Shown piece after piece: positions 38,789 to 39,819 of a DNA stretch of 64,000 nucleotides (its first letter is position 1; each line of letters opens with the position of its first letter). This stretch comes from a virus, in the UHGV virus genome UHGV-1351408; one strand, 5' to 3'. The notes under the pieces are model-generated. The model was not told the DNA's origin. It saw only the letters and a program-made list of their open reading frames with translations, and searched no databases. The position numbers were made by a program, and so were the translations under genes.

Positions 38789-39376
38789 ATGAAACTGTTA
38801 AATATCAAAATCACTGGTACTCGTCCTTTCCTGAGCCACGCTGATACACTGTCAGACCCATTAAACCCTCTGACAAAATATCACAAGTCTCTGTCCAGTA
38901 AACGTAAAAAGACCGACGAAGACTATGCGCTCTTAGCAGAAAGCCAACTGGTAACTTCTTGTTACTACGATGAGCAGCTAGGTTTTGTTATGAACGGTGA
39001 GATGATTGAGGCTTGCATCAAGTCTGGTGCGAAACTCAACAAACTTGGTAAGGTGATTGACCGAGCCATTATGCTGACAGATGTAGTCTTCCCAATGACT
39101 ATCAAGAACTGTCCAGCAAACCCACAAGAACTTGCTAAGAATCCAGACTTTATCTATGCTAAGTCTGTTAAGATTGGTACAGCACGAGTTATGAGCTACC
39201 GTCCAATCTTCCGCGACTGGTCTGTAGAGTTCGGTTTGATGTTCGATGAAGAGCAAATCACCAAAGAGGAACTCCTGATGGTTCTGGAAAATGCTGGTAA
39301 CCTTTGTGGTGTAGGTGATTGGCGTCCACGCTTTGGTCGTTTTTCTGTAGAAGTTATTTCAGAAGGTAATGTTTAA
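38789..39376 (+). CDS. Hypothetical protein (196 aa), first gene of the repeat-flanked cassette
   Basis: ATG at 38789 (track ORF begins at a GTG, 38774); no motif recognised. Confidence 0.55.
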
Positions 39377-39378
39377 TT

Positions 39379-39819
39379 ATGAATACAAAAGCATTAGCAG
39401 CAAAGTTTAGTTACGGTGACACTGTATCACATTCTGAGATGGACACCTTCTTAGGTATTGTGAAGCCAACTTATCAAGGTGACATTGTTAAGTACGAAGA
39501 TGAAATGAAGGCTTATGCACTTACACGTCTAAACCGACTTGAGAAGTTTATTGAGAAACTTCTTAAAGAAGAGAAGATTTATCTGGTTGCTTCAATGGGT
39601 GTTGGTTATCGTGTGGTTGAACCTAAACATCAAGCAACTATTGCAAAACGTAAAATGTCTGGTAAGATTGGTCGTGCTTTAAAACAAGCCACTCAAGCAA
39701 TTGAGAATGTGAACACTATGGCACTTAGTCATCAAGAACGTTCACGACTGATTGAACAGCAAAACCATTTAGCTGCTATGAAAGCTAACATTAACAAGCA
39801 ACGTAGAAAACCTTTCTAA
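39379..39819 (+). CDS. Hypothetical protein (146 aa), second gene of the repeat-flanked cassette
   Basis: ATG 2 nt after the upstream stop; basic C-terminus (KQRRKPF); no motif recognised. Confidence 0.55.
   Translation: MNTKALAAKFSYGDTVSHSEMDTFLGIVKPTYQGDIVKYEDEMKAYALTRLNRLEKFIEKLLKEEKIYLVASMGVGYRVVEPKHQATIAKRKMSGKIGRALKQATQAIENVNTMALSHQERSRLIEQQNHLAAMKANINKQRRKPF

Follow-up and report, generated by a model that had tools for sequence, protein, structure and literature searches.

A CRISPR-like protein, its accessory protein and four guide RNA genes in a Felixounavirus-like phage, very likely a complete type II VIPR locus

[quoted passage not shown] Their central component, Vipr, is a minimal RAMP protein that is suggested to be older than the RAMPs of CRISPR systems, an accessory gene (vap) is present in most systems, and the loci contain neither cas genes nor CRISPR arrays (bioRxiv 10.64898/2026.04.26.720920, 10.64898/2026.04.26.720927). 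The guide is an RNA of about 100 nt, the vrRNA, in which 9-16 YNNGG repeats precede a structured tail. One Vipr protomer binds per repeat, with GGY hidden and NN exposed, and dsDNA is matched by the NN pairs with one base skipped between them, giving an R-loop triplex and repression of transcription; no PAM is needed, and any matching site can be repressed (bioRxiv 10.64898/2026.04.26.720920, 10.64898/2026.04.26.720927). Perturbation of the GGY motif abolishes silencing, and protection is increased by Vap1. In phage SUSP1, expression of the vrRNAs, their co-purification with Vipr and repression of matching dsDNA were demonstrated; 41 vrRNAs of the SUSP1 clade were reported, and 18 of the 20 guides with identifiable targets point to a satellite phage (bioRxiv 10.64898/2026.04.26.720920, 10.64898/2026.04.26.720927).

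The DNA analyzed here, a stretch of 64 kb referred to as the window, belongs to a myovirus of the Felix O1 type and shares 91-95% identity with wV8, EF202P1 and numerous Felixounavirus genomes of Escherichia and Salmonella. We are highly confident that this Felixounavirus-like phage carries, in region 38386-40115 of the window, a complete type II VIPR locus belonging to the SUSP1 clade. It lies between a DNA ligase gene upstream and a homolog of gp86 (wV8 gene 93, Felix O1 NP_944938-like) downstream; beyond the latter are the genes for dihydrofolate reductase and thymidylate synthase. The locus contains only two ORFs, vipr and vap1, with two vrRNA genes upstream and two downstream of them (Table 1). 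Together, the ORFs and the surrounding repeat blocks are one machine, a CRISPR-like protein plus four guide RNAs, which the phage very probably uses against a parasitic satellite element in E. coli chromosomes in order to silence it. VIPR is an already described system, of which the present copy is a clear-cut example carrying guides of its own. Two small details are new, namely the 6-nt unit in vrRNA-B and a solo vrRNA in phage FO1a, which lacks vipr.

An initial annotation of the region had noted two adjacent ORFs with a 2-nt gap, a UUCG-tetraloop terminator after the second gene and paralogous repeat blocks on both sides, and these observations hold. The TAA stop codon of vipr (39374-39376) is separated by TT from the ATG of vap1 at 39379, the hairpin is present after vap1, and the blocks at ~38444-38713 and 39847-40115 each comprise two units of ~130 nt. 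The length of 146 aa given for the second protein is correct, while the 196 aa given for the first included the stop codon and should read 195 aa.

Table 1. Features of region 38386-40115, in window coordinates
Feature	Position	Strand	Description
sigma-70-like promoter	38386-38413	+	TTGACA-16-TATACT; 11/12 consensus matches; predicted
inverted repeat GGTGAGTA/TACTCACC	38402-38409 and 38434-38441		perfect, 8 nt; straddles the promoter -10 box
leader hairpin (CATCACTTAAG...CTTAAGTGATG)	38444-38482	+	before vrRNA-A; same leader type before vrRNA-D
vrRNA-A	38483-38569	+	11 units 38483-38537; pseudoknot tail 38538-38569
vrRNA-B	38570-38713	+	leader ~38570-38609; 14 units 38610-38680; tail 38681-38713
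vipr	38789-39376	+	195 aa; ATG start, GGAG 8 nt upstream; minimal RAMP: RRM core, thumb, G-loop
vap1	39379-39819	+	146 aa; VIPR accessory protein, translationally adjacent to vipr
terminator-like hairpin	39831-39853	+	AGCCTC-TTCG-GAGGCT (39831-39846), then CCTTTTT; UUCG loop; vap1/vrRNA-C boundary
vrRNA-C	39847-39983	+	leader ~39847-39885; 13 units 39886-39950; tail 39951-39983
vrRNA-D	39984-40115	+	leader hairpin 39984-40022; 12 units 40023-40082; tail 40083-40115

The identity of the two proteins is given by their near-identity to those of SUSP1. Searched alone, ORF1 matched PDB 36pp, 'SUSP1 Vipr protein', with an E-value of 8.5e-129 and 98.5% identity, and the sensitive profile search that the initial annotation had recommended, run with ORF1 and its homologs, matched a single solved structure, again PDB 36pp, at an E-value of 2.6e-80. 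ORF1 is identical to SUSP1 Vipr (AVU07_agp039; NC_028808) at 192 of 195 positions and ORF2 to SUSP1 Vap1 (AVU07_agp038; NC_028808) at 145 of 146 (99.3%). A minimal RAMP protein with RRM core, thumb and G-loop and a vap1 gene directly 3' of vipr, both of which characterize type II VIPR, are present. Searches of both ORFs against Pfam and PADLOC, including their cas models, gave no match, PHROGs returned only families of unknown function, and Rfam yielded nothing usable for the repeats. Because Pfam and PADLOC were empty, the earlier statement that the proteins carry no recognizable motif was fair for curated domain libraries; it does not extend to solved structures, among which a 98.5% identical protein exists. 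Membership of a housekeeping phage family outside any repeat context, named by the initial annotation as evidence against its reading, was not found. As a further candidate, a TRAP-like ring protein binding GGU triplets was considered for ORF1 and dropped, as the PDB match favored a RAMP-like G-loop.

The Vap1 family comprises 234 cluster representatives. In the AF2 model of Vap1 (pLDDT 93), a small helix/beta-hairpin domain at the N-terminus precedes two long helices. There are weak hints of a winged-helix-like, DNA-binding fold. Distant Vipr homologs with ~40-49% identity were found in a metagenomic phage contig and a Xanthomonadaceae assembly; both of these vipr genes directly precede a Vap1 homolog (27-28% identity) and have GG-periodic arrays on their flanks.

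A type II vrRNA gene is recognized by at least four tandem YNNGG units, typically 9-16. Four arrays of 11-14 such pentamers on the plus strand flank the two ORFs, and no arrays of this kind were found elsewhere in the 64-kb window. vrRNA-A, with the NN code CT AA AT TC CC AA GA AT AT TT GT, is partly degenerate, since 5 of its 11 units lack the GG. The repeats of vrRNA-B span 71 nt, as its 14 pentamers are accompanied by an extra G at 38645 that creates a 6-nt unit (TATGG-G-TCAGG); such a 1-nt shift was absent from the 25 vrRNAs parsed in six relatives. The arrays end in tails of ~33 nt that form an H-type pseudoknot with a stem 1 of 4 bp and a stem 2 of 5 bp, corresponding to the conserved 3' pseudoknot of type II vrRNAs. 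This structure was scored on nine tails, four from the present phage, four from SUSP1 and one from a satellite. In total, 98.8% of the cells were paired, and compensatory changes on both sides occurred in 8 of the 9 pairs. On four of the five measures, none of 500 shuffles reached the observed values. Pairing was only 28-47% when the partners were slid.

The transcription signals are likewise shared with SUSP1, in which the promoter hexamers, the inverted repeat and the terminator hairpin are identical. FO1a, a strain of Felix O1, retains the -35 box and the arms of the inverted repeat, with TATGCT as the -10 box. The inverted repeat (38402-38441) could serve as an operator, for example for Vap1, and the leader hairpins may act in processing or stability. 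The terminator hairpin is the only terminator-like site within 37500-41000. Between this hairpin and the repeats of vrRNA-C/D (39847-40022), no sigma-70-like promoter was found; transcription of these two guides could result from read-through, processing or a phage-specific promoter.

For the decoding of the guides, the satellite was located with the help of a SUSP1 baseplate gene that the preprint names and of which 474 of 5426 complete E. coli genomes have a homolog. The NN code was then run at skip lengths of 0, 1, 2 and 3 nt over five loci (L005-L009; ~145 kb of E. coli sequence) from these 474 satellite-bearing genomes. Only a skip of 1 nt gave outliers, with all four guides reaching 86-95% NN matches in satellite islands. 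Guide A matches 21/22 at L008 10781-10813, with 20/22 and 19/22 in two other islands. Guide B matches 24/28 at L006 8448-8489 in a regular 3-nt target register, with 23/28 in L008. The remaining two guides have their targets on the minus strand, guide C with 23/26 at L007 8563-8601 and guide D with 21/24 at both L005 9778-9813 and L009 8617-8652. Skips of 0, 2 and 3 nt stayed at a background of 14-19 matches (at most 19/28 for B and 18 for A, C and D), and none of 300 order-permuted guides per guide reached the observed scores, the maxima being 19 to 21. As positive controls, SUSP1 guides 1, 2 and 4 match the same islands with 21/24, 27/30 and 20/22, as do wV8 guides 1, 3 and 4. For vrRNA-B, lengthening or shortening the target by one base at the junction was tried and rejected, with 20 and 18 matches compared to 24/28 for the regular register. 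A blastn search of the vrRNA-C/D region against the 5426 E. coli genomes gave no match.

All hits lie within annotated satellite CDSs, and at 8 of 8 hits, computed from the coordinates, the skipped base is the third codon position. The same placement was seen in the preprint (bioRxiv 10.64898/2026.04.26.720920, 10.64898/2026.04.26.720927). Neither Pfam nor PHROGs contains a match for the satellite genes that the guides hit. The satellite itself is an island of ~10-12 kb that encodes large and small serine recombinases and a replication-initiator-like HTH protein and also carries tape-measure and baseplate genes related to those of the phage. Three or more different chromosomal insertion sites were seen (yciI/tonB, yecN/yecD and lafU/dinB). 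Some copies also carry a Dam-like methyltransferase and an HNH endonuclease.

As VIPR represses at any matching site without a PAM, a genuine VIPR system could also have the natural task of regulating genes of the host or of the phage itself, and the scan covered 64 of the ~88 kb of the phage genome and ~145 kb of E. coli sequence. We consider this alternative very unlikely for several reasons. Self-targets in the window remain at background, the best being 15/22 for guide A, 18/28 for B, 18/26 for C and 17/24 for D, and do not exceed 71%. All matches of at least 80% are inside the satellite island; the E. coli genes that flank it in these loci have none. Moreover, the guides of SUSP1 and wV8 converge on the same islands, in agreement with the satellite targets of SUSP1-clade vrRNAs in the preprint. 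Targets of the xNN type with a 1-nt skip in a competing mobile element, with no self-target at 80% or above, are also the pattern by which type II VIPR is defined. The satellite is accordingly retained as the very probable target.

The comparison with related phages shows a conserved machinery and a changing guide set. Six relatives carry the same vipr-vap1 pair and tails; the SUSP1 proteins are 98.5-99.3% identical, and in the remaining relatives the DNA of the locus is 91-95% identical. Unit numbers differ and the guides are entirely different, except for vrRNA-A, which also occurs in EF202P1, while the GG positions and the tails are conserved. The vrRNAs are arranged 2+2 in the present phage, wV8, P54, E9 and SP-107, 2+3 in EF202P1 and 1+3 in SUSP1. 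The taxonomy line of the P54 record (PV390658.1, L014, phage vB_EcoM_P54) reads Straboviridae/Tequatrovirus; it is probably mislabeled, because the 88-kb genome carries a Felixounavirus-type locus at ~93-95% identity.

FO1a, a Salmonella phage (L010 ~1440-1640), lacks vipr and vap1. Between its ligase gene and gp86 it retains the promoter, one leader hairpin and a single degenerate vrRNA of 11 units that ends in a D-type tail. This solo vrRNA looks like the product of a deletion between flanking vrRNA units, or it may be a guide-only locus. Against the five E. coli satellites, its best score was 16/22, which is background, and no target was found. In the Mooglevirus Sf13, the slot holds only an 85-nt spacer.

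These relatives bear on the reading proposed by the initial annotation, in which a mobile or recombination-prone cassette is enclosed by passive repeats and encodes host-takeover or anti-defense proteins. Its proposal of an accessory conflict module in the early/replication region is borne out, as the module is present in some relatives and absent in others. The passive-repeat interpretation could further draw on the polymorphism of the locus among database records, where the VIPR region matches 231 records, 117 of them over at least 80% of the region, and a wider ligase-to-regulator query matches 260, which are rough counts only because the two record sets were not cross-matched. The collapse of FO1a to one hybrid repeat unit is what recombination between the flanks would produce, and the empty Pfam and PADLOC results fit as well. 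Nevertheless, the strict 5-nt GG periodicity, the covarying pseudoknot tails and the decoding of the variable dinucleotides to satellite genes are at odds with passive repeats; they are guide RNA genes of the same system. Likewise, ORF1 is a structurally characterized RNA-guided DNA binder, and the two proteins are better described as an RNA-guided DNA-binding RAMP (Vipr) with its accessory Vap1, whose targets are in a satellite and not in host defense genes. Different cargo in the slot, which the cassette model had led one to expect, was not seen either: the relatives surveyed contain VIPR, the collapsed solo vrRNA of FO1a or, in Sf13, nothing. We therefore regard the cassette model as largely refuted and give it hardly any weight, the type II VIPR assignment being preferred.

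Guides might also work outside the canonical arrangement. The 6-nt unit of vrRNA-B, which still matches a regularly spaced target, suggests that a one-base bulge is tolerated by the Vipr filament. A satellite in E. coli GN4751 (L009 6042-6126, minus strand) was found to carry its own vrRNA of 14 units with a phage-like pseudoknot tail. Since a tblastn search (E <= 1) detected no Vipr or Vap1 in the five satellites examined, this vrRNA would need Vipr supplied by a phage. Together with the FO1a vrRNA, it suggests guide-only loci that obtain Vipr in trans from a co-infecting or helper phage. The combined idea of bulge-tolerant filaments and guide-only loci borrowing Vipr is offered as a speculative extension that we believe is probably not correct.

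The mechanism considered for the present phage is taken from the SUSP1 work, with the two preprints as its source. By analogy with the SUSP1 experiments and structures, Vipr protomers would load one per YNNGG unit, each GGY would be sequestered by Vipr and the NN dinucleotides would be presented. The Vipr filament would then read dsDNA via NN pairs with a single skipped base between them, an R-loop triplex would form and transcription would be blocked, an effect that Vap1 may enhance. Because the proteins and RNA scaffolds are nearly identical to those of SUSP1, vrRNA expression, co-purification with Vipr and repression of dsDNA are assumed to apply here. We infer that this phage expresses the guides and that a satellite silenced by their binding could not parasitize it. 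Points that weigh against the assignment are the degenerate units of vrRNA-A, given the loss of silencing on GGY perturbation in the preprint, the register shift of vrRNA-B, target matches of 86-95% that fall short of perfect in the five islands scanned, the lack of functional annotation for the targeted genes and the failure to find a sigma-70-like promoter for vrRNA-C and vrRNA-D.

The locus adds nothing categorically new, since VIPR was described in 2026 and the copy is near-identical. VIPR itself is remarkable for recognizing dsDNA in an RNA-guided manner via a discontinuous code, and its protein has been proposed as the ancestor of the CRISPR RAMPs. The practical value lies in annotation, as 'hypothetical protein' genes in more than 100 records of Felix O1-like phages, several of which are studied as biocontrol candidates, can now be named. 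In the 30 listed and five full records, the labels were only 'hypothetical', 'Phage protein' or missing. In the wV8 record of 2009, two vrRNA pieces (L001 6163-6220 and 7556-7613) are labeled as 'DR_4' direct repeats, and vipr and vap1 are hypothetical. In addition, the guide set of each phage allows a prediction of the E. coli satellite variants open to silencing by that phage.

The closest described system is the type II VIPR of SUSP1, with which the present locus shares the gene order (ligase, vrRNA, vipr, vap1, vrRNAs, gp86 homolog) and therefore its DNA ligase and gp86 neighbors, the promoter, leader hairpins, terminator and tail pseudoknots, the YNNGG code and the class of satellite targeted. 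It differs in having 2+2 instead of 1+3 vrRNAs, in the NN sequences of all guides, in the one 6-nt guide unit and in its carrier, which is Felixounavirus-like and not a Suspvirus. Compared to the Cas7-family backbones of class 1 CRISPR-Cas systems (Csm3, Cmr4 and Csf2), Vipr is a single, small protein without a second RRM, and the outcome of VIPR is repression and not cleavage. Repeats of ~28-37 nt with contiguous spacers and cas adaptation and effector genes, which define CRISPR-Cas, are absent from the locus. Instead of an array of long repeats and contiguous spacers, it has 5-nt units with variable parts of 2 nt, and its guides are read discontinuously, with two bases read and three skipped in the RNA and two read and one skipped in the DNA. 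The relation of the locus to CRISPR is one of fold only. A functional parallel exists in Vibrio cholerae, where the lytic phage ICP1 carries an RNA-guided system whose guides match PLE, a chromosomal satellite that exploits the phage, as the guides described here match a satellite in E. coli. The ICP1 system is a type I-F CRISPR-Cas that degrades DNA and acquires spacers, whereas the present phage relies on a minimal Vipr/Vap1 pair, hard-wired pentamer guides and, presumably, transcriptional silencing.
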